From assembly GCA_030018355.1 (NCBI GenBank), contig JASEFN010000005.1, positions 3,712 through 67,711 on the forward strand: a stretch of DNA of 64,000 bases, read 5' to 3'. The translations under genes were made by a program, and so were the position numbers. Every line of letters begins with the position of its first letter. Position 1 is the first letter of the stretch. The notes beneath the pieces were generated by a model. That model searched no databases. It was not told the origin of the DNA and saw only the letters and a list, made by a program, of their open reading frames with translations. This document shows, in pieces, positions 11,282 through 61,845 of this stretch. The DNA comes from Caldisericia bacterium. Its GTDB lineage: Bacteria; Caldisericota; Caldisericia; B22-G15.

Positions 11282-11290
11282 ATTTTATCA
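11282..11290 (-). promoter_or_regulatory. Possible extended -10 promoter for mcsA
   Basis: TGATAAAAT overlapping the gltX stop, followed by SD GAGGT and ATG 11264. Confidence 0.4.
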
Positions 11291-12688: not shown

Positions 12689-13404
12689 TCTGAACACTCC
12701 TTTTTAAAATCACAATATCTGCAAAAATTATTCTCCTTTTTATAAAATTTCTTATTTTTAATTTTTGTACCAACATCAATTATTAAATCTATTGACTCTT
12801 TCAAATTTTCTTCTTTTAAATTGATTCTCTTTTTACTATCGTAATCAAGAGATAAATAATAAATTGATAAAAATCTTGGTGGTTTCTTAAATTCATTTTC
12901 AAATGCAATGTAGTAAATTGACATTTGAAGCAACTCACTCTCATCAATAAGTCCAATTGCATTAAAATCAACATTATATTTACCAGTTTTATATTCTATT
13001 ACTTCATAGTCATCATTTATTTTATCAATTCTATCTATAAACCCAAATATCTCAAAATCGTTGACCTTAAACTTAACCTCAGTTTCTACTTTATATGCCA
13101 TCTCATAATTAAAAATGTTTTTATAATAATATTTTTTTAACAATTCGAGACCTCTTAAAAATTCTTTTTTCTCTTCATCACTATCTTTAAACCCCTCTCC
13201 AATCCAGTAAGTCTCATATATTTCTTTTAATTTCTCAAATGAAGGATATTTTGGTAAAGTATGAAATTTTGAAAGGGTCAAATGAAGTGTTTTTCCAAAT
13301 GATTTATAAGGTTTAGGTTTTTCTTTTAATTTCAATTCATATAGAAAATAATATTTTAAAGGACATTCAAGATAAGTTCTAATTTTTGAAAAACTAAGTT
13401 TCAT
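12676..13404 (-). CDS. PD-(D/E)xK RecB/AddB-family nuclease with a probable Fe-S cluster
   Basis: LSFSKI..Y.ECP, GFIDRID, EYKTG, Q..IY, C-terminal CxxCx5C. Confidence 0.85.
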   Translation of the reverse strand: MKLSFSKIRTYLECPLKYYFLYELKLKEKPKPYKSFGKTLHLTLSKFHTLPKYPSFEKLKEIYETYWIGEGFKDSDEEKKEFLRGLELLKKYYYKNIFNYEMAYKVETEVKFKVNDFEIFGFIDRIDKINDDYEVIEYKTGKYNVDFNAIGLIDESELLQMSIYYIAFENEFKKPPRFLSIYYLSLDYDSKKRINLKEENLKESIDLIIDVGTKIKNKKFYKKENNFCRYCDFKKECSEWKM

Positions 13405-32649: not shown

Positions 32650-33021
32650 ATGATTTTGCCAACACATTACACATTTTCAATTTTTATTCTATCTTTAATT
32701 AAAAAAGATCCTTCAATTTTTTTATACGCAACATTCTCTTTGCTTCCAGATTTAGATATAAAATTAAAAGATCATCGAAGATTTTTACATTCCTTTTTAT
32801 TTTGTTTTTTAATTTTAATAATTTTTAGAAATAATTTAATATTCATTCCATATTTCTCTCATATTTTTTTAGATTATTTCACTTATACCCCTTTAACATT
32901 ACTTTGGCCATATAAAGGAAAATACTCATTGAGATTGATTAAAAGTGGAAGTATAATTGATAAATTATTAACAGTTTTATTTTTAATTCTTTTTTTGCTT
33001 AACTATTTTCTTTTAAAATGA
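32650..33021 (+). CDS. Membrane-associated metal-dependent hydrolase (YdjM/DUF457-like)
   Basis: H near N-terminus, LLPDLD, HRRFLHS, SHIFLD, LLWP. Confidence 0.8.
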   Translation: MILPTHYTFSIFILSLIKKDPSIFLYATFSLLPDLDIKLKDHRRFLHSFLFCFLILIIFRNNLIFIPYFSHIFLDYFTYTPLTLLWPYKGKYSLRLIKSGSIIDKLLTVLFLILFLLNYFLLK

Positions 33022-37025: not shown

Positions 37026-38159
37026 TTAAGTTTCAAATAAAATGGTGACTACTTTTGTATCTGGATTCCAAAGTACCTTTCCTCCTAAAAATTCAGATAC
37101 AAACCTTACAGGAACAACTGTTCTTCCCTTTAAAGTGTAAGGTGCCACATCTATTGAATAAAAAACACCATTCATTCTAACATAATTTTTATTCTGGTCA
37201 ACCCATAATTCTATATAAATATCATTGAAAATAATTATTGCCTTACTTTCATCTTTTACCCAAATAACTTGAGCGCCTCTATGTTCTGAAATAAATCTTA
37301 ATGGAACCATAGTTCTTCCTTTCTCGATAAAAGGAGGGAAGGGTAAAAGATATGGATTATCATTCACATAGGCTACTTGATTTCCAATTTGTAGTACTAT
37401 TTTTATATTTGAGGGTTTTTCAAATTTTACACTAATTACACCATTTCCACCATTGCTTTCAATAAAGATTTTTCCTTCTTCTAAACTCTCTTTTTTTATT
37501 GCAACATAAATTATATTATTATTTCCTTCAAAATTGGTATTTTTTAAAACTATCCAATCATCGTTTGTATATATTTTGCCTTTAATTACTCCTTTGCCAA
37601 TGTTTGTTATTTTTATTTCAAGAACTTCATCTTTATTTTTGAAAATAAGAACTTCAGGTTCATATTTTAATATTGGGACATCTTGGAGTTTAGGCGAAAT
37701 ATTAAGGTCAAGGGTTTTAAAATTTATATTATTTAAATTATTATCTTTAAGAACTACTTCTTTAAATTTTAAAAAAGTTTTGTTTTTTTCCTTTAAAATA
37801 AATTTTATATAAAAAAGTACTCCACTACCACTTATTCCTAACACATTTCCTCTTCTTGCACCACCAATAATTATTTCTCTTCTTTCTAAATCAATCTTAG
37901 ATAAAAAGAGAGTTTGAGTATCTTTTTTTAAAAATTCGCCTTCAATAACCTCTAATATTTTTAAATTTTCTGGTTCAAATTCAATGTAAATAGAAAATCC
38001 ATATAAATTTTTTACATTCTCAATTTTAACAGGAATAACTATTTCTTCGTTTGTTAAAATTTCTAAATTTGAATTTCCAAAAGAAATTAATGTCTCTTGA
38101 GAAATAAATGAAATGTTTAAAAATGTTAATATTATAAATAAAAAAATTAACTTTTTCAT
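37026..38159 (-). CDS. Secreted cohesin - BACON-like - stalk domain protein
   Basis: Signal peptide; cohesin NLYGF...SGSGVLF.IKF; ITNIGKG..W...ESNGG; [12 protein letters not shown] / [12 protein letters not shown]. Confidence 0.75.
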
Positions 38160-40837: not shown

Positions 40838-43800
40838 ATGACTTCTTTTAAAAAACTTTTAATTATTATTCTAACAATTTTTTTAGGCATTTTATTTTTG
40901 AAAGCCTCGGTTGCCCAACAAAGAGAAATTGCACAAGTAGGAGTTATTGGTGTTATGCCTGATGATTATGTAGGAGCATTTACGCTACTCTGGGCAAATA
41001 CTGTTGAAAGCGATTTTAATTCTGAACTCTCTTTTCCAATGCAAGGAATGAAATTTAAAAATGGTTATCTTTATGTTCTTGATACATCTTATGGTAGGGT
41101 TCATGTATTTGATAAAAATCTAAAACATGTTAAAGTTTTTGGAGAATTGGGATATGGAGATGGAAAACTTCAATATCCAGCGGATTTAGATGTTGACGAT
41201 ACGGGTAACATCTATGTTGCAGATTTCTTTAATAATTATATTGTCAAATTTTCCCCACTTGGAGATGTGCTTCTTCAATTTGGAGAAGAAGGAGTTGACG
41301 AAGGAAAATTCAATGGTCCATCAGGTATTGCCGTATCAAAAGATGGAAAAATTTTTGTTTCAGATCAATTGAATTCAAGAATTCAAGTTTTTTCAGATAA
41401 AGGAGAATTTCTAAAAACAATAAAAGTTGATGATATTGTTAATCCTGAAGGAATGACGATTGATGAAGAAAATAATCTTTGGGTTGTTGATGCAAAAAGT
41501 TGTAAAATATTTAAACTTGACTTAGATGGGAATGTTTTATTCTCTTTTGGAGGAAAAGGGTCTCAAGATACACAATTTGTTTATCCTTTTGACATTGAAG
41601 TAAAGGGAAATTATATTTATATTGTAGATAGAGGATTAGGAACACCCTTAAACCCGTGTATTAAAAAATTTGATAAAAATGGAAATTTTGTCTTAAAATT
41701 TGGTAAAAGAGGTACAAAGTTACCACTTCAACCTGGAGAATTCTTAACACCAGCAGGAGTTGCTGTTGATGATGAAGAAAATGTTTATACATTTGATGCA
41801 GGCTACTTTTATGGACCAGGAAATCCATTTGGATGGCCCAGAACAACAAGATTAACAGTTTTTGATAAAAATGGAAATTTTAAAACAAAAATAGATTATG
41901 ATTATTCAATTGAAGGGAGATTAATAAATCCTATTTCTGCATCAGTTGATTCTTCAGGAAATATATGGGTTGCACACTGGGCAAACTTTGCTGATATTGG
42001 TGAAATTGTTATTTTTAATAGTGATGGAAAATTTTTAAAGAAAATAACTGGAATTTCTGAGGATAAACCATTTGCAGTAATTGGTGGGGTTTTATGTGGA
42101 AAAAATGAAGTTTATGTATCTTCAGGAATAGAAGGAGCGCCAATTTCTGTTTTTGATTTACAGGGAAATTTCTTAAGAATTTTAGAAAATTGTAAAGACA
42201 CAATACTTCAACCATATCAAATGGTATTTGATAACAAGGGTAGAATTTGGGTTGTTACAAGAAATTTCATGGTGTATGCTATTTCACCAACAGATGGAAC
42301 AATTTTAAAAGAATTTCAAATTAAAGGTGAAGCAAACGCAATCGCAGTTGACTCAAATAATAATATTTATGTCGCAACATTTGATCATTATGTAGATGTT
42401 TATGATGAGAATGGAAAACTCTTAAGAAAAATTGGAAAAGGCGGGGGAAGGGCACTAGAAAAGTTCTGGTTCCCAACTGGTGTTGCTGTTGATAAAGATG
42501 GCGTAGTGTATGTTGGGGATACAGAAAATGGAAGAATTCAAATGTTTAAAGATGACGGAACATTTTTAGGTTCAACACCAAGAGGATATTATGAACTTGC
42601 TCATCTTTTTATTGGGCAAGATGGAATGATTTATGCTGCAGATCTTTTCCATAATGTAGTAAGAATTATCTCTCCATTTGGTGAAAAATTACAAGATTAT
42701 TCGTTTTCAATTACTTCAGATGCAATTGAAAAAATTACAAAACCAGGAATAGAAGTGTCATTCAACTTAACAATTTCTAATAAAGGAGCAAAACAAGATA
42801 CTTATGAAATTAATTTAGTTTCTAATGTATACGATTGGAAAGTTGTATATCCAAAAGAAGTAGCAGTTAATTCAAAAGAGAAAGGAAGTTTTGAAGTAAA
42901 AGTTTTACCACCCACTTCTGCAAAAATAGGTGATGAAATGATAGTAGAACTTGAAATTAAATCTAAAGGAGACCCTACTATTGTAAAGAAAATTTCATTA
43001 AAGGTTATACTTGCTACAAGAACAAAGGTTTTAATAAATAAAATTGATGTAGATCTTGATTCATCATTTGAAATTCCAATTCTTATTCAAGAAGTTGAAA
43101 ATTTATATGGTTTTGGATTTACATTAACTTATGATAAGGAGTTTCTTGATTTTGAAGATGTAATTGAAGGAGAATTCCTTAAAAAAGACGGAGTATCAAC
43201 TCTATTTTTAAAAAATGTTAATGAAGAAAAGGGGGAAATTATTGTTGGAGTATCAAGAACAGGTAAAGTTCAAGGTGTAAGTGGTGAAGGAGTTTTGATA
43301 AAATTTAAATTTAAAGCACTTAAATTAGGAAAGGTTGATTTGAAAATTTCAAATCTAATCTTAAAAGATCCTGATCTTAATGAAATAAAAGCAAATATTG
43401 AAATTGGTGAAGTAAATATAGTTGAACCAGATAAAAAACCACCTATTTTAACATTAACACTTCCAAGCGAAGTAAAAACACCAGATTTAGTGATTAGTGG
43501 AAAAATTACTGATGAAAGTGGAATTAAATATCTTAAAGTCAATGGAAAGGATATTCAAATAAAAGGAGATGGTACATTTACTTATATGTTAACTCTTGTT
43601 GAAGGAATGAATAAAATTTTAATTGAGGCTGAAGATACACGTGGAAATAAATTAACAAAGGAGTATTATGTTAATTATGTAAAAAGAATTGTATTAAAAC
43701 TTACAATTGGAAATAAAATTATGTTGGTTAATGACAGAGAACAAGAGATAGATGTTCCTCCACAAATTATTGAAGGAAGGACTCTTCTTCCAATTAGATG

Positions 43801-44080
43801 GGTTGCAGAACCTCTTGGTGCAAATGTTGGTTGGGATCCAAATGAAAAGAAAGTAACAGTTTCACTTAAAGATATCACAATTGAACTTTGGATTGGAAAG
43901 AACATTGCAAGAGTTAATGGCATAAATACGCCAATTGATCAAAATAATCCTAAGGTGGTTCCTATGATTATCTCTGGTAGAACCATGCTTCCAGTAAGAT
44001 TTGTTGCAGAAAATTTAGGATGTAAAGTAGATTGGGATCCAACTACAAAAACTGTAATAATAACATACCCAAAGGATTAA
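40838..44080 (+). CDS. Secreted NHL-repeat beta-propeller - Ig/NEW3 - cohesin - Ig - stalk domain protein
   Basis: Signal peptide; many FxxPxGIAVxxxGxIYVxD repeats; cohesin paralogous to 37026-38159; GRTLLPIRWVAE / GRTMLPVRFVAE. Confidence 0.85.
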   Translation: MTSFKKLLIIILTIFLGILFLKASVAQQREIAQVGVIGVMPDDYVGAFTLLWANTVESDFNSELSFPMQGMKFKNGYLYVLDTSYGRVHVFDKNLKHVKVFGELGYGDGKLQYPADLDVDDTGNIYVADFFNNYIVKFSPLGDVLLQFGEEGVDEGKFNGPSGIAVSKDGKIFVSDQLNSRIQVFSDKGEFLKTIKVDDIVNPEGMTIDEENNLWVVDAKSCKIFKLDLDGNVLFSFGGKGSQDTQFVYPFDIEVKGNYIYIVDRGLGTPLNPCIKKFDKNGNFVLKFGKRGTKLPLQPGEFLTPAGVAVDDEENVYTFDAGYFYGPGNPFGWPRTTRLTVFDKNGNFKTKIDYDYSIEGRLINPISASVDSSGNIWVAHWANFADIGEIVIFNSDGKFLKKITGISEDKPFAVIGGVLCGKNEVYVSSGIEGAPISVFDLQGNFLRILENCKDTILQPYQMVFDNKGRIWVVTRNFMVYAISPTDGTILKEFQIKGEANAIAVDSNNNIYVATFDHYVDVYDENGKLLRKIGKGGGRALEKFWFPTGVAVDKDGVVYVGDTENGRIQMFKDDGTFLGSTPRGYYELAHLFIGQDGMIYAADLFHNVVRIISPFGEKLQDYSFSITSDAIEKITKPGIEVSFNLTISNKGAKQDTYEINLVSNVYDWKVVYPKEVAVNSKEKGSFEVKVLPPTSAKIGDEMIVELEIKSKGDPTIVKKISLKVILATRTKVLINKIDVDLDSSFEIPILIQEVENLYGFGFTLTYDKEFLDFEDVIEGEFLKKDGVSTLFLKNVNEEKGEIIVGVSRTGKVQGVSGEGVLIKFKFKALKLGKVDLKISNLILKDPDLNEIKANIEIGEVNIVEPDKKPPILTLTLPSEVKTPDLVISGKITDESGIKYLKVNGKDIQIKGDGTFTYMLTLVEGMNKILIEAEDTRGNKLTKEYYVNYVKRIVLKLTIGNKIMLVNDREQEIDVPPQIIEGRTLLPIRWVAEPLGANVGWDPNEKKVTVSLKDITIELWIGKNIARVNGINTPIDQNNPKVVPMIISGRTMLPVRFVAENLGCKVDWDPTTKTVIITYPKD

Positions 44081-45201: not shown

Positions 45202-46618
45202 CTCTTATCTCATATCCAAGTTCAATTAATCTATTTCTTATTTCATCTGATTTTTTAAATTCTCTATTTTCTCTCAATTTTTTTCTCTCTTCAGTAATTT
45301 TTTTAATCAATTCACTTTCTTCTAACTTTTCATCTTCTGGTAGATAAAAATTATAATCTTTTAATATTTTTATTAATTCATTTTTTAAGTTTTCTACAAC
45401 TTTAAATGATATTTTAATTCCAAGAATATTTAACATTTTATCCAGAATCTCTTTTAAAAATTTATATTCTCCTTTTATTTCATTAGAATTAAACTTATTA
45501 ATTAATTTAAAAATAACTCCAATTGCTCCTTGAGTGTTAAAATCATCATCCATAAATTCTATAAATTCATTAAAAAGTGAGTTTAATAAATTTCTTGATG
45601 GCTCATCTTCTAAATCTCCTTTTTGGGACAAACCTTCAACTATTGAATAAAACTCTCTAATTTTATAATATTCATTCCTTGTTTTTTCTATCTTTTCATC
45701 AGTATAATCTATTGGTGAGTGATAATCTGAAGATAATAAAAATAACCTTAACACCTCAGGTTCATATTTTTTAAGTATATCTTCAATTGTTAAAATGTTA
45801 CCAACTGATTTAGACATCTTCTCTTTATTAATTGTTATTAGTCCATTATGGAGCCAATATCTTACAACAGGTTTATCGCCCTTCCATGCTTCACCTTGAG
45901 CAATTTCATTTTCATGATGTGGAAATATAAGATCTATACCACCACCATGAATATCAAAACCAAAATCAAGATACTTTATTGACATCACTGAACATTCAAT
46001 ATGCCAACCAGGTCTCCCTTTTCCCCAAGGAGAATCCCAGAATACTTCTCCCTCTTTTACTTTTTTCCATAAAGCAAAATCAAGAGGACTTTTCTTTGTC
46101 TCATCAATTTCTATTCTTACACCCTTAATTAACTCATCGACTTTTCTATTAGAAAGTTTTCCATAATCTTTAAATTTACTAACTTCAAAGTAAACTCCAG
46201 TTTCTGTTTCATATGCAAAACTTTTATCTTGAAGATCTTTTACCATTTTAATAATTTCATCTATATGTTCAGTAACTCTCGGATATAAATTATTCTCTGT
46301 ATCAATATTTAATAGTTCTATATACTTTTTATACATATTTATAAAAGTCTCTGCTATTTCTTTAGGTGTAAGACCCCATTCTAAACTTCTTTTGATTATC
46401 TTATCATCTATATCGGTATAATTTTGTACATACTTAACATCATAACCTTTAAATTTTAAATATCTTTTAATTGTATCGTATATAACAAGTGGTCTTGCGT
46501 GTCCTATATGAGGATAATTATCTGGAGTTAAACCACAAACATACATATAAACTTTATCTTTTTCTCTTGTAATAAACTCTTCTTTTCTTCTTGTTAAGGT
46601 ATTATAAACTTTTATCAT
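45167..46618 (-). CDS. cysS: Cysteine--tRNA ligase
   Basis: YVCG.T, HIGH, GWHIECS, FPHHENE, KMSKS. Confidence 0.97.
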   Translation of the reverse strand: MIKVYNTLTRRKEEFITREKDKVYMYVCGLTPDNYPHIGHARPLVIYDTIKRYLKFKGYDVKYVQNYTDIDDKIIKRSLEWGLTPKEIAETFINMYKKYIELLNIDTENNLYPRVTEHIDEIIKMVKDLQDKSFAYETETGVYFEVSKFKDYGKLSNRKVDELIKGVRIEIDETKKSPLDFALWKKVKEGEVFWDSPWGKGRPGWHIECSVMSIKYLDFGFDIHGGGIDLIFPHHENEIAQGEAWKGDKPVVRYWLHNGLITINKEKMSKSVGNILTIEDILKKYEPEVLRLFLLSSDYHSPIDYTDEKIEKTRNEYYKIREFYSIVEGLSQKGDLEDEPSRNLLNSLFNEFIEFMDDDFNTQGAIGVIFKLINKFNSNEIKGEYKFLKEILDKMLNILGIKISFKVVENLKNELIKILKDYNFYLPEDEKLEESELIKKITEERKKLRENREFKKSDEIRNRLIELGYEIRDGRKETIVFRR

Positions 46619-48045
46619 ATTTTATTAATTACCTCCTTTATTCTATTTAGAGTTTCCTCTTTGCCAAGTAAATAAATATATATGTAAATTTCTGGACCTT
46701 CGTCTTTATGAGTAATAAGAACTCTTAACGGATGATAGAGGCTTTTTCCTTTCAGAGAAAGTTTTTTTCCTATATCTTTTATTAAATTTAAAATATTATT
46801 TTCATTCCAGTTATGAAGATTTTTAATAGAATTATAAAATTCATAGATCAAATTTTTATTTTCTTTCAAATAAGAAAGTTTTTCTTCTGAAAGTTCTTCT
46901 GGTTTATAAATATCATTTATCAGATTTTTAATATCGCTCAAAACAAAAATATGATCTCTCATAAGTCTTAAAAATTCCATTAGCCACTCGTCATCTTTAA
47001 TTTCAAAATTTCTATTTAAATAAAACTCTTTGACTTTTTTAAAAAGTTCTTCTAATGATAACATCTCTATATATTTATGATTCATCCATCTTAATTTTGA
47101 GGGAGAAAAAATTGCATTGCTTTTAGAAAGGTTTTCTATGCTAAATTCTTCTATAAGTTCTTGAAGCGAAAAAATTTCCTTCTCTTTTGTTTTGGGTGAA
47201 AACCCAAGAAGAGCCATATAATTAACTAGTGCTTCTGGAAGATAACCTTCATTTCTATAGTCTCTTAATGAAACTGATCCATGTCTTTTCGAGAGTTTTG
47301 TATGATCTTCTCCAAGTATCATTGGTAAATGTATGAATTTTGGTAAAGGAAAATCTAATGCTTTATAAATTAAAATTTGTCTTGGTGTATTTCCATGAAG
47401 ATGATCTTCACCTCTTATGACAAAATTTATTTTCATTAAAGCATCATCAATAACAACAGCAAAATTATAAGTTGGCATTCCATCTGAACGCATAATTACA
47501 AAATCATCAAGGTTTTCAATTGGAAATATAAGTTTCCCTCTTAACTCATCCTCAACTATAACTTCTCCACTTAAAGGAGTCTTAAATCTAACAACTGGAT
47601 TTGGATTCTTTTTTAATTTCTCTTCAATTTGTTCTTTACTTAAATTTCTACATTTTCTTGAATATTTAGGCATAAGACCTTTCTTTAACATCTCTTCTCT
47701 ATCTTTTTCTAATTCATCCTCACTACAGAAACAGAGATAGGCTTTACCCTCTTCTAAAAGTTTATTTATATAAAATTTATAAATCTCAATTCTCTCAGAT
47801 TGTCTATACGGTCCATATGGTCCACCTATATCAGGACCCTCATCCCAATTTATATTTAACCATTTTAATCCCTCAATTATATCGTCTTCATACTCTTTTT
47901 TGGATCTCTCTCTATCTGTATCTTCTATTCTTAAAATAAATTTTCCATTGTTTTTTCTGGCAAAAAGATAATTAAAAAGAGCTGTTCTTACATTCCCAAT
48001 ATGCATAAAACCAGTTGGTGAAGGTGGAAATCTTACTCTAATCAT
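46615..48045 (-). CDS. gltX: Glutamate--tRNA ligase (copy 2)
   Basis: RFPPSPTG.MHIGN, RIEDTD, RGEDH, KLSKRHG; gltX-cysS synteny. Confidence 0.95.
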   Translation of the reverse strand: MIRVRFPPSPTGFMHIGNVRTALFNYLFARKNNGKFILRIEDTDRERSKKEYEDDIIEGLKWLNINWDEGPDIGGPYGPYRQSERIEIYKFYINKLLEEGKAYLCFCSEDELEKDREEMLKKGLMPKYSRKCRNLSKEQIEEKLKKNPNPVVRFKTPLSGEVIVEDELRGKLIFPIENLDDFVIMRSDGMPTYNFAVVIDDALMKINFVIRGEDHLHGNTPRQILIYKALDFPLPKFIHLPMILGEDHTKLSKRHGSVSLRDYRNEGYLPEALVNYMALLGFSPKTKEKEIFSLQELIEEFSIENLSKSNAIFSPSKLRWMNHKYIEMLSLEELFKKVKEFYLNRNFEIKDDEWLMEFLRLMRDHIFVLSDIKNLINDIYKPEELSEEKLSYLKENKNLIYEFYNSIKNLHNWNENNILNLIKDIGKKLSLKGKSLYHPLRVLITHKDEGPEIYIYIYLLGKEETLNRIKEVINKI

Positions 48046-52272: not shown

Positions 52273-52302
52273 GAGAGGGAGAAATTAAACACTCTCCCTC
52301 TC
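52273..52302 (-). terminator. Hairpin enclosing the rpoC stop codon (terminator or stabiliser)
   Basis: GAGAGGGAGA/TCTCCCTCTC 10-bp stem with the stop in the 10-nt loop; no good U-tract. Confidence 0.4.
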
Positions 52303-55300
52303 CTCAATTAACTCTTTTTTCTCAACAATTTTTATTCCCTCATACTCTGAAAAACCTGTTCCCACTGGTATCATGCTACCAACAATAATGGCCTCTTTAA
52401 GTCCTTCTAATGTATCTATTTTACCGCTAATTGCGGCTTCAGCAAGAACTTTTGTTGTCTCTTGGAAAGAAGATGCAGATAAAAACGAATCTGCAGAAAG
52501 TGCAGCTTTTGTTAATCTTAAAAGCAATATTTTATATGTTGCTGGTGTTCTATTTTCAGCTTTTGCAACTCTATTTTCTTCCTCAACTTCACTTCTTTCA
52601 ACTTCTTGACCTGGATAAAATTTGGTATCACCTGGATTAATTATAATTGCTTTTCTTGTTAACTCTCTTAATATTATTTCTATGTGTTTATCATTTATAG
52701 AAACTCCCTGACTTTTATAAACCTTTTGAATTTCCTGTAATAGATATTGTTCTGTCTCTCTTAAACCCTTTATTTGGAATATTTTGTGTGGATCTAAAGG
52801 ACCTTCTGTTAATCTATCACCAATATTCACATAATCTCCATTTTGGACTCTTATTGATTTACCATATTGAACTATATAGACTGTTTCTTTTCCAATTAGT
52901 TTTTTAACTAATTCCTCTTTATCTAAACTTAAAATATCTTTAACTTTTTCAATTTTTGCTTCATTTAATGCTTCTAATATATCATCTTCGAGTTCCAATT
53001 CATACACTGAGGTATTTGGATCAACTGAAATGGAATTATTTAATTTTTCCATCAATCTTTCATATAAATTAATAGCAATTTCCCTGGTTCTTGGAGTAAT
53101 TATAATTTTTCTTGCATCTTCTTCGTCTTTTATAGTTACATAACCAGAAACATCAGAAATAATTGCACTTCCTTTTGGCTTTCTTACTTCAAAAAGCTCC
53201 TCAACTCTTGGTAAACCAGAAGTGATATCTTTTGCTGCGATACCACCAGTATGGAATGTTCTTAAAGTTAATTGAGTACCAGGTTCACCAATAGATTGAG
53301 ACGCGATGATACCAACAGCCTCACCTAAATTGACAAGTTTTCCAGTTGCAAGATCTCTACCATAACATTTTGCACAAACACCATTTGGAGCTGAACATGT
53401 TAATACTGACCTAATTTTAACCTTTTTAATACCATACTCCTTTATTTTATTAACTGCAACCTCATCTATTTCTTCTCCTTTTCTAACAATTAACTCTCTT
53501 TTAATAGGAACATTAACTAAAATTTCTTTTATGTTGTGTTTAATTAATTTATCAATTAATTCATCTGTAATCTTCTCGCCTTCTTTTGCTAAAACATGTA
53601 AATTTTCATCAACTATATCTTTTGCTACAAAACCTTCTTTTGGTCTCTCAATCTCAAGATTATATTTAACTAATTTCTCGGAAGGAGAATATATATCTTC
53701 AGCAGCATATCTTCCAAGAATTCTTTCTTCAAGAGTTTCAATGATTCTTTGACCTTCTCTAACTTCTTCTACTTCTATTCCATCTGTGAAATTTCTGATC
53801 CAAACTGTTCCAATATTTTTGCTTTCTATTTCAAGAGCTTTTTCTCTTGTTATCTCTTCATTTTCATGAACTATAACTTCACCTGTATCTGGATCAACTA
53901 CATCTTTTGCAGCTACTTTACCAACAATCTGTCTATATAAACTTTTTATAACTTTATCACCTATTATAATAGGTTTTACTGGAATAACTTCACAATCTTC
54001 ATATTTGATAAATACCTTATGAGCCACATCAGCAAGTCTTCTTGTTAAATAACCTGCGTCTGATGTTTTTAATGCTGTGTCTGCCAAACCTTTCCTTGAA
54101 CCATGCGTTGAAATAAAATATTCGAGTACAGATAGACCTTCTTTTAAGTTTGATTTGATTGGAAATTCAATAATTCTTCCTGAAGGATCAGACATAAGAC
54201 CTCTCATTCCAACCATCTGCAAAATTTGTTCGGGTTTACCTCTTGCACCTGAAATCGCCATTAAAAGAAGGAAATTAAATGGATCATATGTATTAAAAAT
54301 CTCATTTACTAATTCTTCTCCGGCTTTTAGCCAAACATCAATTGTTTTCTTATATCTTTCATTGTCTGACATTAAACCTTTTTCATAAAATTCTCTAAAT
54401 TTCCTCTCTTTTTCTTCTGCTTCTCTTATTATTTCGTCTCTTCTTTTTGGAATAACCATATCATCCATTCCAATGGTTAATCCTGAAAGTGTAACAATTT
54501 CAAAACCGAGTTTTTGAACTTCATCTAAAAGTTTTGCAGTTTTCTCAAATCCATATTTTTTAAATATTTGGAAGAATAAATCGTTTACCGTTTTTTGGTC
54601 AATAACCTTATCAAAAAATTCGAAATTCTCATCTTCGAGTGTTTCTTTAATTAAATTGTTAAAAATTACTCTACCAACCGTTGTATTATTAATCCACTTT
54701 TTATTCCAATAAAAATCAATAATTGTATGATATGTTACTTTTCCTTCATCTAATGCGGCATTTAAATCTTCTATTGTATAAAATTTTAAACCTTCTCCTT
54801 TTTCGCCTTTTTTCTCTTTAGTAAGATAAAAACATCCAGCAACAACATCTTGAACAGGTAATGTTATTGGTTTACCATGTGCTGGTGAAATTATATTATA
54901 TTTTGATAAAAGTAAATATTTTGCTTCAGTTTGTGCTGCAATTGATAAAGGAAGATGAACAGCCATCTGATCTCCATCAAAATCAGCATTATAAGGAGGA
55001 CAGACAAGCGGAGATATTTGAATCGCTTCACCATCGACTAAAATTGGCTTAAATGCTTGAATGCTCATTCTATGAAGAGTTGGTGCTCTATTTAAAAGTA
55101 CTACATAATCTTTAACTGTTTCTGCTAAAACTTTCCAAACTGGACTATTTTGATCTTTTACTGCCTGTTCAATCATCCATTTAGCGCTTCTTAAATTTAA
55201 AGCAATTCCTGTTTCTTCAAGATTATGCATTAAAAAAGGTTTAAATAATTCTAAAGCCATATTTCTTGGTAAACCACATTCATCCAATTTTAATTTAGGT

Positions 55301-56334
55301 CCTACAACAATAACGCTTCTTCCAGAATAATCAACTCTTTTACCAAGTAAATTTTGTCTAAATCTTCCTTGTTTTCCTCTTAAAATATCAGACAATGAAT
55401 GAAGTGGTCTATTGTGAGAACCTATGATTGGATGTATTTTATGAGTATTGTCTAATAATGCATCAACTGCTTCTTGGAGCATTCTTTTTTCATTTTGTAG
55501 CATTATTTCAGGAGCATTAACATCAATTAGTTTTTTCAATCTATTGTTTCTGTTTATAACTCTTCTATATAAATCATTTAAATCAACAGATGCAAATCTT
55601 CCTCCATCTAATGGTAAAAGAGGTCTTAAATCTGGAGGAATAACTGGCAAAACTGTCAACACCATATATTCGGGTTTATTACCAGATTTCAAGAATGCTT
55701 CAACATAATCAAGCCTTTTCATTGCTGAAGTTTTTTTCTGTTTTGTTGAAGATTTTTTAATCTCTTCTACTAATTCTTCTCTTAAACTTTCAAGATCAAG
55801 TGACTTTAGAAGTTCTAAAATTGCTTCTGCACCTCTTTTAGCAACAAAATTATATCCCCTTTCTTTATACTCTCTATATTCTTCCTCATTAATAACTTGT
55901 TTATATTTAAGAGGTGAATTTCCAGGATCTAAAACAACATATGAAGCATAATAAACTATTTTTTCAACATCATTTTTAGACATATCAAGAAGTACAGGAA
56001 TTATATTTGTTGATCTAAAATACCATATATGAACAACGGGTGACGCAAGATTAATATGACCAAACCTCTCTCTTCTTACTTTAGATGTTGTTATCTCAAC
56101 TCCACATCTTTCACAAACAAGCCCTCTATACCTTACTCCTTTTAGTTTTCCACAATGACATTCATAATCTTTAACTGGTCCAAATATCCTTTCGCAAAAA
56201 AGGCCGTCCATTTCAGGTCTAAAGTTTCTGTAATTAATAGTCTCGGCCTTTTTTACTTCACCATGTGACCAAGATAATATCTCTTCAGGTGATGCTAAAG
56301 ATATCTCAATGGCATTAAATTTCTTTTGAATCAA
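52285..56334 (-). CDS. rpoC: RNA polymerase beta' subunit
   Basis: N-terminal zinc finger, NADFDGD, LRTFHTGG; TTG start behind AGGAGG. Confidence 0.98.
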   Translation of the reverse strand: MIQKKFNAIEISLASPEEILSWSHGEVKKAETINYRNFRPEMDGLFCERIFGPVKDYECHCGKLKGVRYRGLVCERCGVEITTSKVRRERFGHINLASPVVHIWYFRSTNIIPVLLDMSKNDVEKIVYYASYVVLDPGNSPLKYKQVINEEEYREYKERGYNFVAKRGAEAILELLKSLDLESLREELVEEIKKSSTKQKKTSAMKRLDYVEAFLKSGNKPEYMVLTVLPVIPPDLRPLLPLDGGRFASVDLNDLYRRVINRNNRLKKLIDVNAPEIMLQNEKRMLQEAVDALLDNTHKIHPIIGSHNRPLHSLSDILRGKQGRFRQNLLGKRVDYSGRSVIVVGPKLKLDECGLPRNMALELFKPFLMHNLEETGIALNLRSAKWMIEQAVKDQNSPVWKVLAETVKDYVVLLNRAPTLHRMSIQAFKPILVDGEAIQISPLVCPPYNADFDGDQMAVHLPLSIAAQTEAKYLLLSKYNIISPAHGKPITLPVQDVVAGCFYLTKEKKGEKGEGLKFYTIEDLNAALDEGKVTYHTIIDFYWNKKWINNTTVGRVIFNNLIKETLEDENFEFFDKVIDQKTVNDLFFQIFKKYGFEKTAKLLDEVQKLGFEIVTLSGLTIGMDDMVIPKRRDEIIREAEEKERKFREFYEKGLMSDNERYKKTIDVWLKAGEELVNEIFNTYDPFNFLLLMAISGARGKPEQILQMVGMRGLMSDPSGRIIEFPIKSNLKEGLSVLEYFISTHGSRKGLADTALKTSDAGYLTRRLADVAHKVFIKYEDCEVIPVKPIIIGDKVIKSLYRQIVGKVAAKDVVDPDTGEVIVHENEEITREKALEIESKNIGTVWIRNFTDGIEVEEVREGQRIIETLEERILGRYAAEDIYSPSEKLVKYNLEIERPKEGFVAKDIVDENLHVLAKEGEKITDELIDKLIKHNIKEILVNVPIKRELIVRKGEEIDEVAVNKIKEYGIKKVKIRSVLTCSAPNGVCAKCYGRDLATGKLVNLGEAVGIIASQSIGEPGTQLTLRTFHTGGIAAKDITSGLPRVEELFEVRKPKGSAIISDVSGYVTIKDEEDARKIIITPRTREIAINLYERLMEKLNNSISVDPNTSVYELELEDDILEALNEAKIEKVKDILSLDKEELVKKLIGKETVYIVQYGKSIRVQNGDYVNIGDRLTEGPLDPHKIFQIKGLRETEQYLLQEIQKVYKSQGVSINDKHIEIILRELTRKAIIINPGDTKFYPGQEVERSEVEEENRVAKAENRTPATYKILLLRLTKAALSADSFLSASSFQETTKVLAEAAISGKIDTLEGLKEAIIVGSMIPVGTGFSEYEGIKIVEKKELIEERESV

Positions 56335-56347
56335 ATATATTCACCTC

Positions 56348-58423
56348 CTATGATTTTTCTAACTCTTCTTTTCTTTTTTTAATAATTTCTTCTGCTAATT
56401 TTTGAGGAACTTCGTCATATTTATAAAATTTCGCAGTAAAATATCCTCTTCCTTGAGTTATTGAAGCAAGATCCAATCCATAAGTAAGCATTTCTGATTC
56501 TGGAACAAGGGCTTTTACAATAGAAATTCCTTTATCAGAATTCATTCCTAAAATTTTTCCTCTTCTTGTATTTAAATCAGAAATTACATCTCCTAAGAAA
56601 TTTTCTGGAACTCTTATTTCAACTTCAAGTATTGGTTCAAGAAGTATTGGATTTGCCTCAACAAATGCTTTCTTAAATGCCATTGAAGCAGCTATTTTAA
56701 ATGCAAGTTCTGAAGAATCAACTGGATGATATGAACCATCATACAAAATTACTTGTACATCAACAACAGGATATCCTGCAATAATTCCTTCTTTCATCGT
56801 TTCCCTAATTCCCTTTTCAACTGCAGGAATATATTGTTTAGGTATTGCTCCTCCAAAAATTTTATCTATAAATTCAAACTCTTTTCCTCTTTCAAGTGGA
56901 TTAATTTCAATGAAACAGTGTCCGTATTGTCCATGACCTCCAGTTTGTTTCTTATATTTACCTTCTGCTTTAGCGGTCCCTTTTATTGTTTCTTTATATG
57001 CAATTTCAGGTTTCTTTAAGTTAACTTCAACTCCAAATTTTCTTGAGATTCTCTCAAGAATAACTTGAATATGAGTAGCTCCAGTACCCCTTATTATTAA
57101 CTGTTTTGTTATATCATTTCTCTCAACAATAAATGTTGGGTCTTCTTCAGCCATTTTAAATAATGCAGAGGTGAGTCTATCTTCGTCTTCTTTTCTTTTT
57201 GGTTCAACAGCATAAGAAATAATGGGATATGGAATTTCAAAATAATTGTATTTAACATTAAAACCAGATTGTGTTAAGGTATCACCAGTTGATGTAACAT
57301 TTAATTTTGTTATAACTCCTATATCTCCTGCTTTAATTTCTTGTGTTTTCTCTTGTGTCTTACCTATAATAAATCCAATAGATGAAACTCTTTCTTCTTG
57401 ATCTTTATTAACATTGTAAACTTTTGAATCAGCGGTAATTTTTCCTGTTATTACTTTTATATAATTTATTCTACCTACAAATGGATCAATGATAGTTTTA
57501 AAAATAATACCTGAAAATGGTAAATTCTCATCAAAATTTTTAACAACTGCTTCTTTTGTTTTTGTGTCATAACCAAATCTTTTTTCATCTAAATAAGGCT
57601 CTGGAAATTCATTTATTATGAAATCTAATATATCTTCAGTACCAATATCATTAATACTGGATGAAACAAGAATTGGAAATAGCATTCTATTTTTAACACC
57701 AATAAGAAGTCCTTTTTTAATCTCTTCTTCACTAAGAGTTCCATCAGTTAAATACTTATTTAAAAATTCTTCATCAACTTCAGCTATTTTTTCTATCAAC
57801 TCATTTTTGTAATTCTCAAATTCATTCTTTAATTCTTGAGGAATATCAACTTCTTTAAATGTGTCGCCATCAAAAATTTTACCCTTTTGGGTTATTATAT
57901 TTACAAAACCTTTGAAGTTTAAACCTTCTCCAATAGGAAGTAATATTGGTACTGCATCATTTCCAAAAAATTTTCTAATACTTGCAACTGCCTCTTTAAA
58001 ATTCGCATTTTCTCTATCCATTCTACTAATCACAAAGGCGGTTGGTAAATTTTCTTCTTTTACAAATTCCCAAACTCTCTCTGTCCCAACTTCAACATGA
58101 GATGTTGCATCCACAAGAATTAAACTTGCCTCAGATACAAGAAGTGCTCCTTTTACTTCAGATAGAAATTCTACATAACCCGGTGTATCAAGTATGTTAA
58201 TTTTATAACCTTTCCAATTGATTGGAATAACAGAAGTAGATAAACTTATATGTCTTTTTATTTCCTCAGGCTCAAAATCTGAAACTGTATTACCCTTATC
58301 AACACTTCCTTTTTTCTGAATAAATTTTGAAACATAAAGCATTGATTCAACTAAAGAAGTTTTTCCTGCGCCACTATGCGCAACTAAAGAAACATTTCTT
58401 ATTTTTGTTCTTTCTACTATCAT
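56348..58423 (-). CDS. fusA2: Elongation factor G-like protein (EF-G2 subtype)
   Basis: AHSGAGKT, RHISL, DTPGY, SRMD, EDPTF, KQTGGHGQYG, SYHPVDSSELAF. Confidence 0.92.
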   Translation of the reverse strand: MIVERTKIRNVSLVAHSGAGKTSLVESMLYVSKFIQKKGSVDKGNTVSDFEPEEIKRHISLSTSVIPINWKGYKINILDTPGYVEFLSEVKGALLVSEASLILVDATSHVEVGTERVWEFVKEENLPTAFVISRMDRENANFKEAVASIRKFFGNDAVPILLPIGEGLNFKGFVNIITQKGKIFDGDTFKEVDIPQELKNEFENYKNELIEKIAEVDEEFLNKYLTDGTLSEEEIKKGLLIGVKNRMLFPILVSSSINDIGTEDILDFIINEFPEPYLDEKRFGYDTKTKEAVVKNFDENLPFSGIIFKTIIDPFVGRINYIKVITGKITADSKVYNVNKDQEERVSSIGFIIGKTQEKTQEIKAGDIGVITKLNVTSTGDTLTQSGFNVKYNYFEIPYPIISYAVEPKRKEDEDRLTSALFKMAEEDPTFIVERNDITKQLIIRGTGATHIQVILERISRKFGVEVNLKKPEIAYKETIKGTAKAEGKYKKQTGGHGQYGHCFIEINPLERGKEFEFIDKIFGGAIPKQYIPAVEKGIRETMKEGIIAGYPVVDVQVILYDGSYHPVDSSELAFKIAASMAFKKAFVEANPILLEPILEVEIRVPENFLGDVISDLNTRRGKILGMNSDKGISIVKALVPESEMLTYGLDLASITQGRGYFTAKFYKYDEVPQKLAEEIIKKRKEELEKS

Positions 58424-61400
58424 TGACTCACCTCTTTCTTTTTGTTCTTTCTTTTTCTAGTTGGTAAATAAAATTTAACCTCTTTTTTCTCCTCTTTTTT
58501 CTCAAAATCAGGAATTGTTTTTATATTAATACCTAAGCCTCTTAATTCTCTAACTAAAACCTTAAAAGATTCTGGGATCCCAACTTCCTCAATATCTCTT
58601 CCTTTTACAATACTCTCATATGCTTTTCTTCTGCCTTCAATATCATCAGATTTTATTGTTAACATTTCTTGTAATAAATTTGCAGCACCATATGCTTCTA
58701 AAGCCCAAACTTCCATTTCACCTAATCTTTGACCACCAAATTGAGATTTACCCCCGAGTGGCTGTTGTGTTACTAATGAATATGGACCAGTTGATCTTGC
58801 GTGTACTTTATCTAAAACAAGATGGTTTAATTTCATAATATATGCGTATCCAACAAGGGCTTTTGATTTGAAAGGTTCTCCAGTATATCCATCGTATAAA
58901 ACTTCTTTACTATTAATATCTAAACCAGCCTTCTTTAACCATTCTTCAATTTCTTCTTCTTTTAAAGGTGTAAAAATTGGAATTTCAAATCTAATTCCTA
59001 ATTTATAGGCAGCATAACCTAACATTGTTTCTAAAGTTTGACCTATGTTCATTCTTGAAGGCACTGAAAGTGGTGAAAGCACTATATCAACTGGAGTTCC
59101 ATCTGCTCTAAATGGCATATCTTCTTCTGGAAGAATAGCAGCAACAACTCCTTTATTACCATGTCGTCCAGCCATCTTATCTCCAACCATAATTTTTCTT
59201 TTCTGAGCAACAAGTATTTTAACCAATTTCTCAATACCAACGGGTAGTTCATCTCCTTTATCTTTTGAATAAACTTTTGTCAAAATCACAGTTCCAAATT
59301 CACCTGGAGGAAGTCTTAATGAATTATCTACAACATCTTTTCCTTTTTCTCCAAACATTGCACGCCAAATTTTTGATTCAGGTGATGTATCAACTTCTGC
59401 TTTTGGAGCAAGTTTTCCAACAAGAATATCACCAGGTTTAACTTCAGCACCAACTCTTACTATTCCTTCTTCTGTTAAATTTCTTAATTCTGATTCATCG
59501 ACATTAGGTATATCTTTTGTTAAAATTTCAGGTCCTGCTTTAGTTTCTCTAACCATTGTTGTATACTCTTTTATATGAATTGATGTATATACATCATCTT
59601 TTACCAATCTCTCACTAATTAAAATAGCATCTTGATAGTTGTAACCTCTCCATGGTAAATAGGCAACTAGAAGGTTTCTTCCTAATGATAGAATTCCATC
59701 TTTAATTGCTTGACCATCAACAATAATATCTCCCTTTTTAACTGTATCACCTTTTTTTACTATAGGTCTTGAATTTATACATGTATCTTGATTTGATCTT
59801 GCAAATTTTTTTAATTCATATACTCTTTCTTCCTTTTTATTTTTTATAACTATTCTATCTGCAGAAACTTCTTTGACAACCCCATCTATATCTGAAATAA
59901 CTATGCTTGGATCATGCCTTGCAACTACTTTTTCCATTCCTGTTCCAACAATTGGTGGCTCTGGAAAAAGAAGAGGTACAGCTTGTCTTTGCATATTACA
60001 ACCCATAAGCGCTCTATTTGCATCATCATGATCAAGAAATGGAATCAAAGATGCTGAAACAGAAAAAACTTGAAGAGGTGATATTTCAATAAATTGAATT
60101 TTTTCAAGAGGTATTTTTTCAATAACTTCTCCTTTGTATCTTCCAGTTGCGAAACCATCATTTAACAAATTTCCTTCATCGTCTCTTAAAAGTTCACCTT
60201 TTTTATTAACAGGTGTATTCGCTTGGGCAATGTAATACTTTTCTTCTTCAAGTGCTTCAAGATAAACAATTTCATCAGTTAATTTACCATTTACAACTTT
60301 TCTATATGGAGTTGTTATAAATCCATATTCATTTATTTTTGCATAAACTGTTAACGAATTAATTAAACCAATATTTTGACCTTCTGGAGTTTCTATTGGG
60401 CATATTCTTCCATAATGAGATGGATGAATATCTCTTACCTCTAAACCTGCAGTTTCACGAGTTAATCCACCTGGGCCCATTGAGGAGAGTCTTCTTTTAT
60501 GAGTAAGTGATGAAAGAGGATTTGTTTGTTCCATAAATTGTGAAAGTTGACCAGTTCCAAAGAAACTTTGTAAAGATGCTGTAATTGGTTTAGAATTTAT
60601 TAGGTGTTGAGCAGTAAACATATCTTCTGAGTATGTGCTAATTCTTCCTTTCATAACTTTTACCATTCTGAGGAGACCGTATCTCATATTTACTTCCATC
60701 AATTCGCCTACACCTCTAACATATCTATTCCCTAGATGATCTATATCATCTAATTTCTCTTGGTTATTTTTTATCTTTATTGCATGTCTTATAATTGCAA
60801 CTATATCATCAAATGTAACAATATTATCTTTTAGAGACAAACCAAATTTTTGATTTATTTTATGTCTTCCAACATCTGAAAGATAGTTTCTTTTTTGATC
60901 AAAAAATGTAACATTAATTAAATTTTTTGCAGATTCTAAAAGAACTCTTTCTCCTGGTCTCAATTTTCTATATATATCAAGAATAGCATCTTCTTGAGTT
61001 TTATTTGTATCCTTCTCAAGAGTTTTCTTTATTATAGGATCTACCATCTCTTTATAAATTTCTAAAACATTTATACCTAAATCATAAAGAGTATGAATCT
61101 TTTCACTTGTAACATCTTCTCCTTCATAATAAACGATTTCTCCTGTCACTGGATCGTATATATTTTCACCAAATGTACAAGGTAGATTTTTTTCAAGATC
61201 ATAAATATTCACTTTTATTTTTCTTTTCTCTTTAAAAAGGTCCATTATTTCTTCATCACTCAATTCCTTAAACACTCTTAATATTGTTGGAAAATATAAT
61301 TTTCTTGATCCTTTATTTAATCTAATTACAAGAGTATTAGTTGACTCAACTTCAAATATAAACCATGTGCCTCTTTCTGGTATTAGCCTTGCTTCAAAAA

Positions 61401-61845
61401 GCACTCTGCCTGAATGAGCAGAGGATGGCTTTGTAAAATAGACACCAGGTGCTCTTATTAATTGTGATACAACAGTTCTTTCTGTTCCATTAAAAACAAA
61501 AGATCCATAAGGAGTAATATATGGTATTTCACCTAAAAAAACATCTTGTTCTTTTATTTCACCAGTTCTTTTGTTTGTTATTCTTACTTTTGCTTTTAAT
61601 TTTCCAGCATATGTTAACTTTTTTTCTTTACATTCTTCAACTGAAAGTTCTGGGGGAAATACTTTTGGGTCAAAAAATTCAACAACTGCTTTTGGAGTCT
61701 CAACAGGTGAAATTTCTTCTAAAAGTTTTGGTATTTTTTTATTTATAAAATTATAAAATGAATCTTTTTGAAATTGTAATAAATCAGGAATTTCTAAATT
61801 AGAAAATAAAAATTTATTGAAGTTTATAACTTCTTTTTTCTCCAT
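58420..61845 (-). CDS. rpoB: RNA polymerase beta subunit
   Basis: GRICPIETPEG, MGCNMQRQA, GDKMAGRHGNKG, GGQRLGEME. Confidence 0.98.
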   Translation of the reverse strand: MEKKEVINFNKFLFSNLEIPDLLQFQKDSFYNFINKKIPKLLEEISPVETPKAVVEFFDPKVFPPELSVEECKEKKLTYAGKLKAKVRITNKRTGEIKEQDVFLGEIPYITPYGSFVFNGTERTVVSQLIRAPGVYFTKPSSAHSGRVLFEARLIPERGTWFIFEVESTNTLVIRLNKGSRKLYFPTILRVFKELSDEEIMDLFKEKRKIKVNIYDLEKNLPCTFGENIYDPVTGEIVYYEGEDVTSEKIHTLYDLGINVLEIYKEMVDPIIKKTLEKDTNKTQEDAILDIYRKLRPGERVLLESAKNLINVTFFDQKRNYLSDVGRHKINQKFGLSLKDNIVTFDDIVAIIRHAIKIKNNQEKLDDIDHLGNRYVRGVGELMEVNMRYGLLRMVKVMKGRISTYSEDMFTAQHLINSKPITASLQSFFGTGQLSQFMEQTNPLSSLTHKRRLSSMGPGGLTRETAGLEVRDIHPSHYGRICPIETPEGQNIGLINSLTVYAKINEYGFITTPYRKVVNGKLTDEIVYLEALEEEKYYIAQANTPVNKKGELLRDDEGNLLNDGFATGRYKGEVIEKIPLEKIQFIEISPLQVFSVSASLIPFLDHDDANRALMGCNMQRQAVPLLFPEPPIVGTGMEKVVARHDPSIVISDIDGVVKEVSADRIVIKNKKEERVYELKKFARSNQDTCINSRPIVKKGDTVKKGDIIVDGQAIKDGILSLGRNLLVAYLPWRGYNYQDAILISERLVKDDVYTSIHIKEYTTMVRETKAGPEILTKDIPNVDESELRNLTEEGIVRVGAEVKPGDILVGKLAPKAEVDTSPESKIWRAMFGEKGKDVVDNSLRLPPGEFGTVILTKVYSKDKGDELPVGIEKLVKILVAQKRKIMVGDKMAGRHGNKGVVAAILPEEDMPFRADGTPVDIVLSPLSVPSRMNIGQTLETMLGYAAYKLGIRFEIPIFTPLKEEEIEEWLKKAGLDINSKEVLYDGYTGEPFKSKALVGYAYIMKLNHLVLDKVHARSTGPYSLVTQQPLGGKSQFGGQRLGEMEVWALEAYGAANLLQEMLTIKSDDIEGRRKAYESIVKGRDIEEVGIPESFKVLVRELRGLGINIKTIPDFEKKEEKKEVKFYLPTRKRKNKKKEVSQ

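Follow-up and report, generated by a model that had tools for sequence, protein, structure and literature searches.

The inserts surveyed in bacterial RNA polymerase, in its beta and beta' subunits, are mostly HABAS domains, BEAN and sLC domains being rarer (PMC11515920). Many large-subunit inserts serve as landing sites of regulators, or else adjust pausing and how stable open complexes are. In E. coli, the insert SI3 lies against the jaw and places it on the downstream DNA (PMC2939025), and the jaw itself, the HABAS domain beta'-bD6 of Alvarez-Carreno et al. (2024), carries in its second half one of seven insertion sites (PMC11515920). In this study, a 64,000-nucleotide stretch from a Caldisericia bacterium (assembly GCA_030018355.1, contig JASEFN010000005.1, positions 3,712 to 67,711; hereafter the window) was analyzed, in which the rpoC gene encodes a beta' subunit with an additional block of about 64 residues between two strands of the jaw. 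The block is a lineage-specific insert with a predicted helical fold, and its C-terminal part is likely related to the C-terminal domain of the polymerase alpha subunit (alphaCTD).

SI3 (beta'i6) and the other SBHM, HABAS and BEAN inserts resemble the window insert as lineage-restricted surface domains within conserved polymerase elements; those inserts tune open-complex stability, pausing or factor binding. SI3 differs in that it is a beta-sandwich lying in the trigger loop, while the window insert is a predicted helical domain, probably of helix-hairpin-helix (HhH) type, in the jaw hairpin. Nearer in position is the insert of Dehalococcoides mccartyi beta' (Q3Z8V3, residues 1016-1086; site vi, beta'-bD6, type 2 beta'; PMC11515920), which has the same host domain, a similar size (~70 amino acids) and, by residue counting (~28 residues into bD6), the same loop, the equivalence being drawn from lengths. 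The Dehalococcoides insert, however, is a HABAS domain, that is, a beta-rich barrel-sandwich, whereas that of the window is predicted to be all-helical. The window insert matched no barrel-sandwich or BEAN family in Pfam and its model is all-helical, which places it outside the HABAS/SBHM, BEAN/BBM2 and sLC classes. The literature examined, which included PMC11515920 but not the catalogues of Lane and Darst (2010), describes no helical module of alphaCTD type within beta'. An earlier reading of the window's sequence (the original prediction) had tentatively placed the insert outside the described ones; the site is in fact already catalogued (site vi, beta'-bD6, PMC11515920), the insert listed there having another fold. 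The insert is thus a lineage-specific one at a known hot spot, with a fold type new to the surveyed inserts.

A lineage-specific insertion in the beta' jaw

The insert was recognized by length comparison and alignment of the window beta' with other beta' sequences. The span from the trigger-loop motif GLPRV to the motif EGPxxP was 143 amino acids in the window protein and ten Caldisericia relatives and 78-81 amino acids in 206 other beta' proteins; one unrelated protein among the 218 compared had a span of 210 amino acids. In a MAFFT alignment of 22 sequences, the additional residues formed a single clean block of 63 columns, free of internal gaps. The insert takes the place of a hairpin loop of ~7 residues, with a net gain of 63-65 residues. 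In the PDB alignment, every solved beta' matched the query in two pieces, residues 1-57 and 123/125-211, and in the five printed alignments only 0-4 target residues lay between them, so the insert has no counterpart in solved RNA polymerases. This held for the best-scoring chains, including that of Clostridium thermocellum (8i24) and other enzymes lacking SI3, and the Thermus, Mycobacterium and E. coli chains lower in the table were likewise matched outside the insert only.

The rpoC gene contains all of the Pfam domains RNA_pol_Rpb1_1 to _5 and scored 1569 bits against the NCBIfam model TIGR02386 (cut-off, 963.5); an exact-sequence look-up returned no record identical to the window beta'. Translation of the minus strand from 52885 to 53097 gave TPRTREIAINLYERLMEKLNNSISVDPNTSVYELELEDDILEALNEAKIEKVKDILSLDKEELVKKLIGKE, inside the beta' frame. 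The features of the gene that are referred to below are as follows, in window positions and beta' residues.

52285-56334, minus strand: rpoC, RNA polymerase beta', 1349 amino acids, TTG start (open reading frame list and translation)
53188-53262, minus strand: trigger loop, residues 1025-1049, RTFHTGGIAAKDITSGLPRVEELFE, uninterrupted (translation and comparison with other beta' proteins)
53095-53115, minus strand: jaw strand before the insert, residues 1074-1080, ARKIIIT (AlphaFold2 strand 47-53; counterpart of jaw strand beta2 in E. coli, beta' ~1172-1178)
52885-53094, minus strand: lineage-specific insert, residues 1081-1150, PRTRE...LIGKE (length comparison, alignments and translation)
53035-53085, minus strand: predicted N-terminal amphipathic helix of the insert, residues 1084-1100, REIAINLYERLMEKLNN (AlphaFold2 and conservation; outside the hhalign match)
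52894-53013, minus strand: probable alphaCTD-like HhH core, residues 1108-1147 (hhalign, Pfam, NCBIfam, AlphaFold2 and Foldseek)
52867-52884, minus strand: jaw strand after the insert, residues 1151-1156, TVYIVQ (AlphaFold2 strand 124-129; equivalent to E. coli Y1186-P1191, jaw strand beta3)

The trigger loop is uninterrupted, which identifies the window polymerase as an enzyme without SI3. With window residue K1159 aligned to E. coli beta' 1194 in the PDB alignment, the insert stands in place of the E. coli loop 1179-1185. The E. coli beta' sequence of this region fits the residues that James et al. (2012; PMC3778932) mention there (V1176, D1181, D1184, Y1186, E1187, E1188 and M1189). In E. 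coli, the jaw strands (V1176 and Y1186-M1189) form the jaw face toward the downstream DNA channel; V1176 is a Gp2/jaw interface residue, and E1187, E1188 and M1189 contact the T7 protein Gp2 (PMC3778932). A jaw fragment binds double-stranded DNA by a surface that overlaps the Gp2 site, and deletion of beta' residues 1149-1190 makes open complexes less stable and affects pausing, elongation and termination (PMC3778932). In enzymes lacking SI3, the jaw is reportedly disengaged from the downstream DNA in open complexes (preprint 10.64898/2026.02.09.704077). The original prediction had described about 65 extra residues splitting the jaw hairpin between KIIIT and ETVYIV, on the downstream face of the polymerase. 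Both the flanks and the size were right, as the block measures 63-65 residues, and the location was borne out by the PDB alignment, the insert lying between jaw strands that face the downstream DNA in E. coli (PMC3778932).

The search with full-length beta' retrieved ten clusters (P0121-P0130), eight of them full-length and two partial, which share 78-92% identity with the window protein and all have the block. The insert is free of insertions and deletions in the window protein, in P0001 and in these clusters. A genome scan found it only in metagenome-assembled genomes (MAGs) of Caldisericota and in one unclassified MAG. It was absent from the next relatives, which are 50-54% identical to the window beta' and include MAGs labelled Caldiserica or Coprothermobacterota, and also from a Caldisericum-like beta' of 1264 amino acids (P0139) whose gene lies in the unusual order rpoB-EF-G-rpoC that is also found in the window and in Caldisericum exile. 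The block, present in 11 Caldisericia beta' sequences and absent from 206 others, is thereby confirmed as a real lineage-specific insertion: it is restricted to one clade and occupies a loop at the surface of a conserved domain, and the jaw strands on either side of it are intact. A search with an insert-only profile against a set of 5.8 billion proteins gave no matches, apparently owing to a word-index limit, and the full-length query and an exhaustive search (see below) were used instead.

Most simply, the insert would have been gained a single time within Caldisericia, later than the divergence of the Caldisericum-like line. Caldisericum exile, the sole Caldisericota genome of the PMC11515920 survey, has a beta' of 1263 amino acids and is listed there for another unique architecture; this length is close to that of the insert-less P0139, so C. 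exile probably lacks the insert. Among the carriers, the insert is 47-70% identical as compared with 79-94% for the remaining beta'.

Besides, a second surface region of beta' (residues ~830-1000; DNA ~53335-53847, minus strand), located before the trigger loop, is enlarged and poorly conserved. The least conserved 70-residue stretch of the protein begins there, at residue 884, and the region is enlarged in P0139 too; a connection with the 'unique architecture 5' given for C. exile beta' (PMC11515920) is possible.

The jaw hairpin loop holds other inserts as well. An unrelated insert of ~130 amino acids, for which no Pfam match was obtained, occupies the same loop in P0142 and its 13-member cluster from MAGs of Coprothermobacterota, likewise a deep-branching lineage. 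With this case and that of Dehalococcoides, the jaw loop is a recurrent insertion hot spot.

Predicted fold and probable relationship to alphaCTD

When modeled by AlphaFold2 together with its jaw context, the insert was predicted with good support to fold as a compact four-helix domain (pLDDT 82-95; helices 57-73, 90-98, 104-108 and 112-120 of the model), and connectors of three residues join it to the jaw strand on each side. A five-residue turn links helix 90-98 to helix 104-108, with pLDDT above 90 in context. The isolated segment gave the same four helices at a lower pLDDT of 71. The N-terminal helix (57-73 in the context model, 10-26 in the isolated one) has no alphaCTD counterpart; A7 and Y11 of the insert are invariant in it, and L18 and N19 nearly so. 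The remaining three helices (residues 1117-1125, 1131-1135 and 1139-1147) form the probable HhH core and are followed by a conserved G-K turn. A Foldseek search with the lower-confidence isolated model placed alphaCTD-containing alpha chains and the N-terminal domains of RAD51C/D on top, and the top 50 include many of them. The context model retrieved beta' chains only (template modeling score to the query ~0.5), which is in line with an unmatched insert but uninformative on its fold.

Sequence profiles pointed in the same direction. The window insert matched the Pfam alphaCTD family (RNA_pol_A_CTD, PF03118) with 16.8-16.9 bits and an E-value of 0.005 (0.0036 for the best member; 5 of the 11 members at E≤1). 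In NCBIfam its top match was the RpoA model NF003519 (E 0.002, alpha residues 248-291), and the PDB profile search gave the CTD of RpoA with an E-value of 0.56. By hhalign, insert residues 28-64 were aligned to E. coli alpha 255-291. Four bona fide alphaCTDs gave the same register with a P-value of 6.5e-4. In a column-shuffle control, the real score of 22.6 compared with 10.35±2.07 for the shuffled alignments (maximum, 18.55), about 6 standard deviations apart; none of 400 shuffles reached the real score, so composition alone does not explain the alphaCTD match. Further, the profile of the 11 inserts was run by exhaustive hmmsearch against 1.84 billion representative proteins at E≤1e-3. Six matches were obtained, of which two were fragments of the same beta' insert, and three of the four non-beta' matches (E 2.8e-5 to 2e-4) were proteins with 2-7 significant PF03118 stretches. 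The sixth match is weakly similar to several unrelated families in many stretches and looks repetitive and spurious.

The match to alphaCTD takes in helices 1 to 3, together with the first hairpin and the beginning of the second. It ends at about alpha residue 291, helix 4 being absent, so that about half of alphaCTD, and not the complete domain, is present. On the evidence as a whole, the C-terminal 40 residues of the insert are quite likely, though not proven to be, an alphaCTD-like HhH core, a diverged relative of alphaCTD, and homology between the two is probable. The original prediction had aligned the insert to E. coli alphaCTD by eye, in a register identical to that chosen by hhalign, and had noted that R265 and N268 become D and E. 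The aligned positions are indeed acidic: column 38 (R265) is D or E in 11 of 11 sequences, and the N268 position is E41 in at least 90% of them. It had also likened the insert to the acidic AR modules of NusA, for which no support was obtained: the family HHH_5, to which these modules belong, gave no match at E≤1 in any of the 11 members, and the insert is just mildly acidic. Of the two relationships proposed, that to alphaCTD was thus recovered at or near the top of the profile searches, though below threshold, and that to NusA AR was not recovered.

In alphaCTD, DNA is contacted through the '265 determinant', which consists of R265, N268, C269, G296, K298 and S299. Apart from the two acidic positions described above, the C269 position is occupied by A, V or I in the insert, and the K298/S299 region is absent, the G-K turn alone being kept. 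The insert thus lacks the DNA-binding determinant of alphaCTD. All 11 inserts have a net charge of -3 to -6 and an isoelectric point of 4.7-5.1.

Among known HhH modules, alphaCTD is the best match by sequence profile and structure together, both being small all-helical HhH-type modules of RNA polymerase. They differ in that alphaCTD is the end of alpha and is attached through a long, flexible linker, whereas the insert is internal to beta' with its three-residue connectors; it lacks helix 4 with K298/S299, is acidic at the R265 and N268 positions and has an extra N-terminal helix. The N-terminal HhH domains of RAD51 paralogs gave the best single Pfam E-value (RAD51D_N, PF21794: 7e-4, 20.2 bits against a cut-off of 27.3; found in 5 of the 11 members) and the best Foldseek template modeling score to the target (0.62-0.63, with a root-mean-square deviation of 3.4 over 44-47 columns; RAD51C 8gj9 and 8ouy). 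However, bona fide alphaCTD-repeat proteins cross-match RAD51D_N, so a match to this family mostly means membership of the HhH clan, and these domains, mainly protein or DNA contact modules, work in another biological context. NusA AR1/AR2 (HHH_5) offer a functional analogy as acidic HhH modules that bind proteins and not DNA, but they are double (HhH)2 units and far more acidic, while the insert, by its predicted fold, has one complete HhH plus a half.

The proteins with repeated alphaCTD units retrieved by the exhaustive search are of an uncharacterized architecture. P0244 has at least 7 PF03118 units, P0246 has sigma-70 region 4 followed by 3 units, and P0245 (1042 amino acids) has 2 units. 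They are a possible donor pool for alphaCTD-like modules.

The NCBIfam models of archaeal A'' match the trigger loop only in insert-less beta' proteins; in the window protein the match (residues 999-1145, profile positions 39-175) extends beyond it, over the jaw strand and across the insert. This extension is probably a neutral alignment effect. A relationship of the insert to archaeal A'' was rejected, as there was no gain in bits, the insert alone was unmatched and no archaeal or eukaryotic large-subunit chains appeared in the PDB search.

Candidate explanations for the insert

We favor the following explanation, to which a probability of about 0.55 is assigned as a whole. A Caldisericia clade acquired ~64 residues where a loop connects two strands of the beta' jaw (beta'-bD6). 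The C-terminal part of this insertion would be a diverged alphaCTD-like HhH core, and a new N-terminal amphipathic helix would stand, in sequence order, for the missing fourth helix. The predicted three-residue connectors on both sides imply that the module is rigidly mounted where the downstream-DNA channel opens. It would not bind DNA in the manner of alphaCTD, which makes a contact surface the more likely role: a fixed, mildly acidic surface that may dock a protein partner, such as a lineage-specific factor or an element similar to sigma region 1.1. Alternatively, the module may modulate in cis, by steric or electrostatic effects, how the jaw loads downstream DNA. Functional precedents are T7 Gp2, sigma70 region 1.1 and B. 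subtilis delta, which are small acidic elements that do not bind DNA and work on these jaw strands or next to them, competing with downstream DNA or gating it (PMC3778932). They differ from the insert in acting in trans or within sigma and in having an unrelated fold, and a similar gating by the insert is a conjecture. A more specific version is a doubtful proposal: that an alphaCTD-type module was captured from rpoA or a tandem-alphaCTD gene and welded to the jaw strands that bind downstream DNA, where it would do within the enzyme what phage Gp2 or sigma region 1.1 does, serving as a fixed acidic gate or docking point.

Several observations weigh against this explanation. As to the alphaCTD relationship, the gathering threshold of PF03118 (23.8 bits) was not reached, and all library matches of the insert are below curated cut-offs. 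The 90% probability given by hhalign against the PF03118 repeats is partly circular because these repeat sequences were picked up by the insert profile itself, and the probability was just 27.6% against an independent alphaCTD alignment. The significant E-values of the exhaustive search sum several repeats, and all Foldseek matches of the isolated model had E-values of at least 0.46 and probabilities of at most 0.77. As to the acidic surface, 10% of the 70-residue windows of beta' are as acidic as the insert or more, which makes it a mild acidity in a K/E-rich proteome. Moreover, the lysines K47, K50, K59, K65 and K69 are conserved in or near the hairpins, so that the insert may contact DNA. 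Finally, only two 70-residue stretches of beta' are as poorly conserved, the insert among them, which is also expected of a weakly constrained surface decoration.

Such a decoration is the first of the alternatives that have to be considered: a generic small helical bundle, tolerated on the surface without specific function, whose likeness to alphaCTD is convergent or compositional. The sub-threshold matches and the low conservation would both suit it, and so would the site, which is permissive given that the same loop holds the unrelated Coprothermobacterota insert and the beta-rich one of Dehalococcoides (PMC11515920). Nevertheless, it is rather unlikely, since alphaCTD ranked first or second in four tools (two libraries of hidden Markov models, the PDB profile search and the structure search), the hhalign score stood ~6 standard deviations above column shuffles of unchanged composition, and the exhaustive search specifically retrieved alphaCTD-repeat proteins. 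In addition, the length of the insert is invariant, with zero insertions or deletions, and its hydrophobic and charged pattern is kept down to 47% insert identity.

HhH motifs are classic non-specific binders of the DNA backbone. The module could therefore bind the downstream duplex non-specifically, at ~+15 to +25, thereby extending the jaw and restoring the jaw-DNA contact lacking in polymerases without SI3; this would stabilize open complexes or improve processivity. The conserved lysines in or near both hairpins and the invariant G-K turn would fit this role, as would the location on a hairpin whose strands bind double-stranded DNA in E. coli (PMC3778932) and the report that the jaw is off the DNA in SI3-less enzymes (10.64898/2026.02.09.704077), to which the window enzyme belongs. 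DNA binding is, however, judged improbable, because the net charge is negative in all members, the R265- and N268-equivalent positions are conserved as acidic residues, and the second hairpin runs straight into the beta-stalk, with the fourth helix, which bears K298/S299 in alphaCTD, being absent. The abrupt presence or absence of the block between lineages, and nothing more, would speak for a mis-assembly, an intein or a mobile-element remnant in rpoC. The chance of this is practically nil. Independent assemblies from NCBI, JGI, ENA and Logan share the insert, which makes it no assembly artifact, and it is in frame and of the same length in 11 sequences from independent sources; its predicted domain is continuous with the jaw strands. 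A mobile element, intein or duplication was rejected, as no flanking direct repeats were found around the insert, its G+C content is within the range of the rpoC gene without compositional anomaly (26.8% for the window), and no intein or transposase families were detected by Pfam and NCBIfam for the insert and beta'. A contact surface with a probable alphaCTD-like core stays the preferred explanation, with a putative role in docking or gating.

Gene neighborhood and significance

No rpoA or nusA gene was found in the window: phmmer with E. coli RpoA gave no match at E≤10 among all frames of at least 60 codons, and Pfam detected neither gene among 40 of the larger open reading frames. Other genes of the window include the following.

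58420-61845, minus strand: rpoB, beta of 1141 amino acids, with Rpb2_6 uninterrupted
56348-58423, minus strand: full-length EF-G family gene, 691 amino acids, inside the rpoB-rpoC operon (TIGR00484, 663 bits; cut-off, 659); 4 nt are shared with the rpoB stop, and 13 nt separate its end from rpoC
32999-35173, minus strand; 37026-38159, minus strand; and 40838-44080, plus strand: large proteins ending in copper-amine-oxidase N-terminal-like domains
11288-12697, minus strand, and 46615-48045, minus strand: two glutamyl-tRNA synthetase paralogs
5187-6176, plus strand: open reading frame of 329 amino acids with a PolX thumb and a PHP domain alone, polymerase palm and fingers not being detected

The order rpoB-EF-G-rpoC-S12-S7-EF-G is annotated in C. 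exile, and rpoB-EF-G-rpoC is also found in the insert-less relative L006, so the placement of EF-G is a Caldisericota trait independent of the HhH insert. The beta subunit of C. exile has ~1398 amino acids with insertions at 202-268 and 665-923 (table of PMC11515920); besides the jaw insert of beta', inserts in beta also seem to set the two Caldisericota lineages apart. The largest of the three copper-amine-oxidase-like proteins also has NHL/beta-propeller repeats and a cohesin domain, and the three are probably a family of cell-surface proteins.

An alphaCTD-related helical module in the jaw would add a fold class to the catalogue of large-subunit inserts and would be a case of domain re-use within one enzyme. 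The insert is a natural experiment on the role of the jaw in SI3-less enzymes, with a scope limited by its uncultured clade. If the more specific proposal of a captured, Gp2-like gate is true, downstream-DNA loading, and hence open-complex formation and pausing, would be regulated from the front of the enzyme, possibly with a lineage-specific partner, and the gate or docking point would represent a regulatory route without known parallel in other bacteria.

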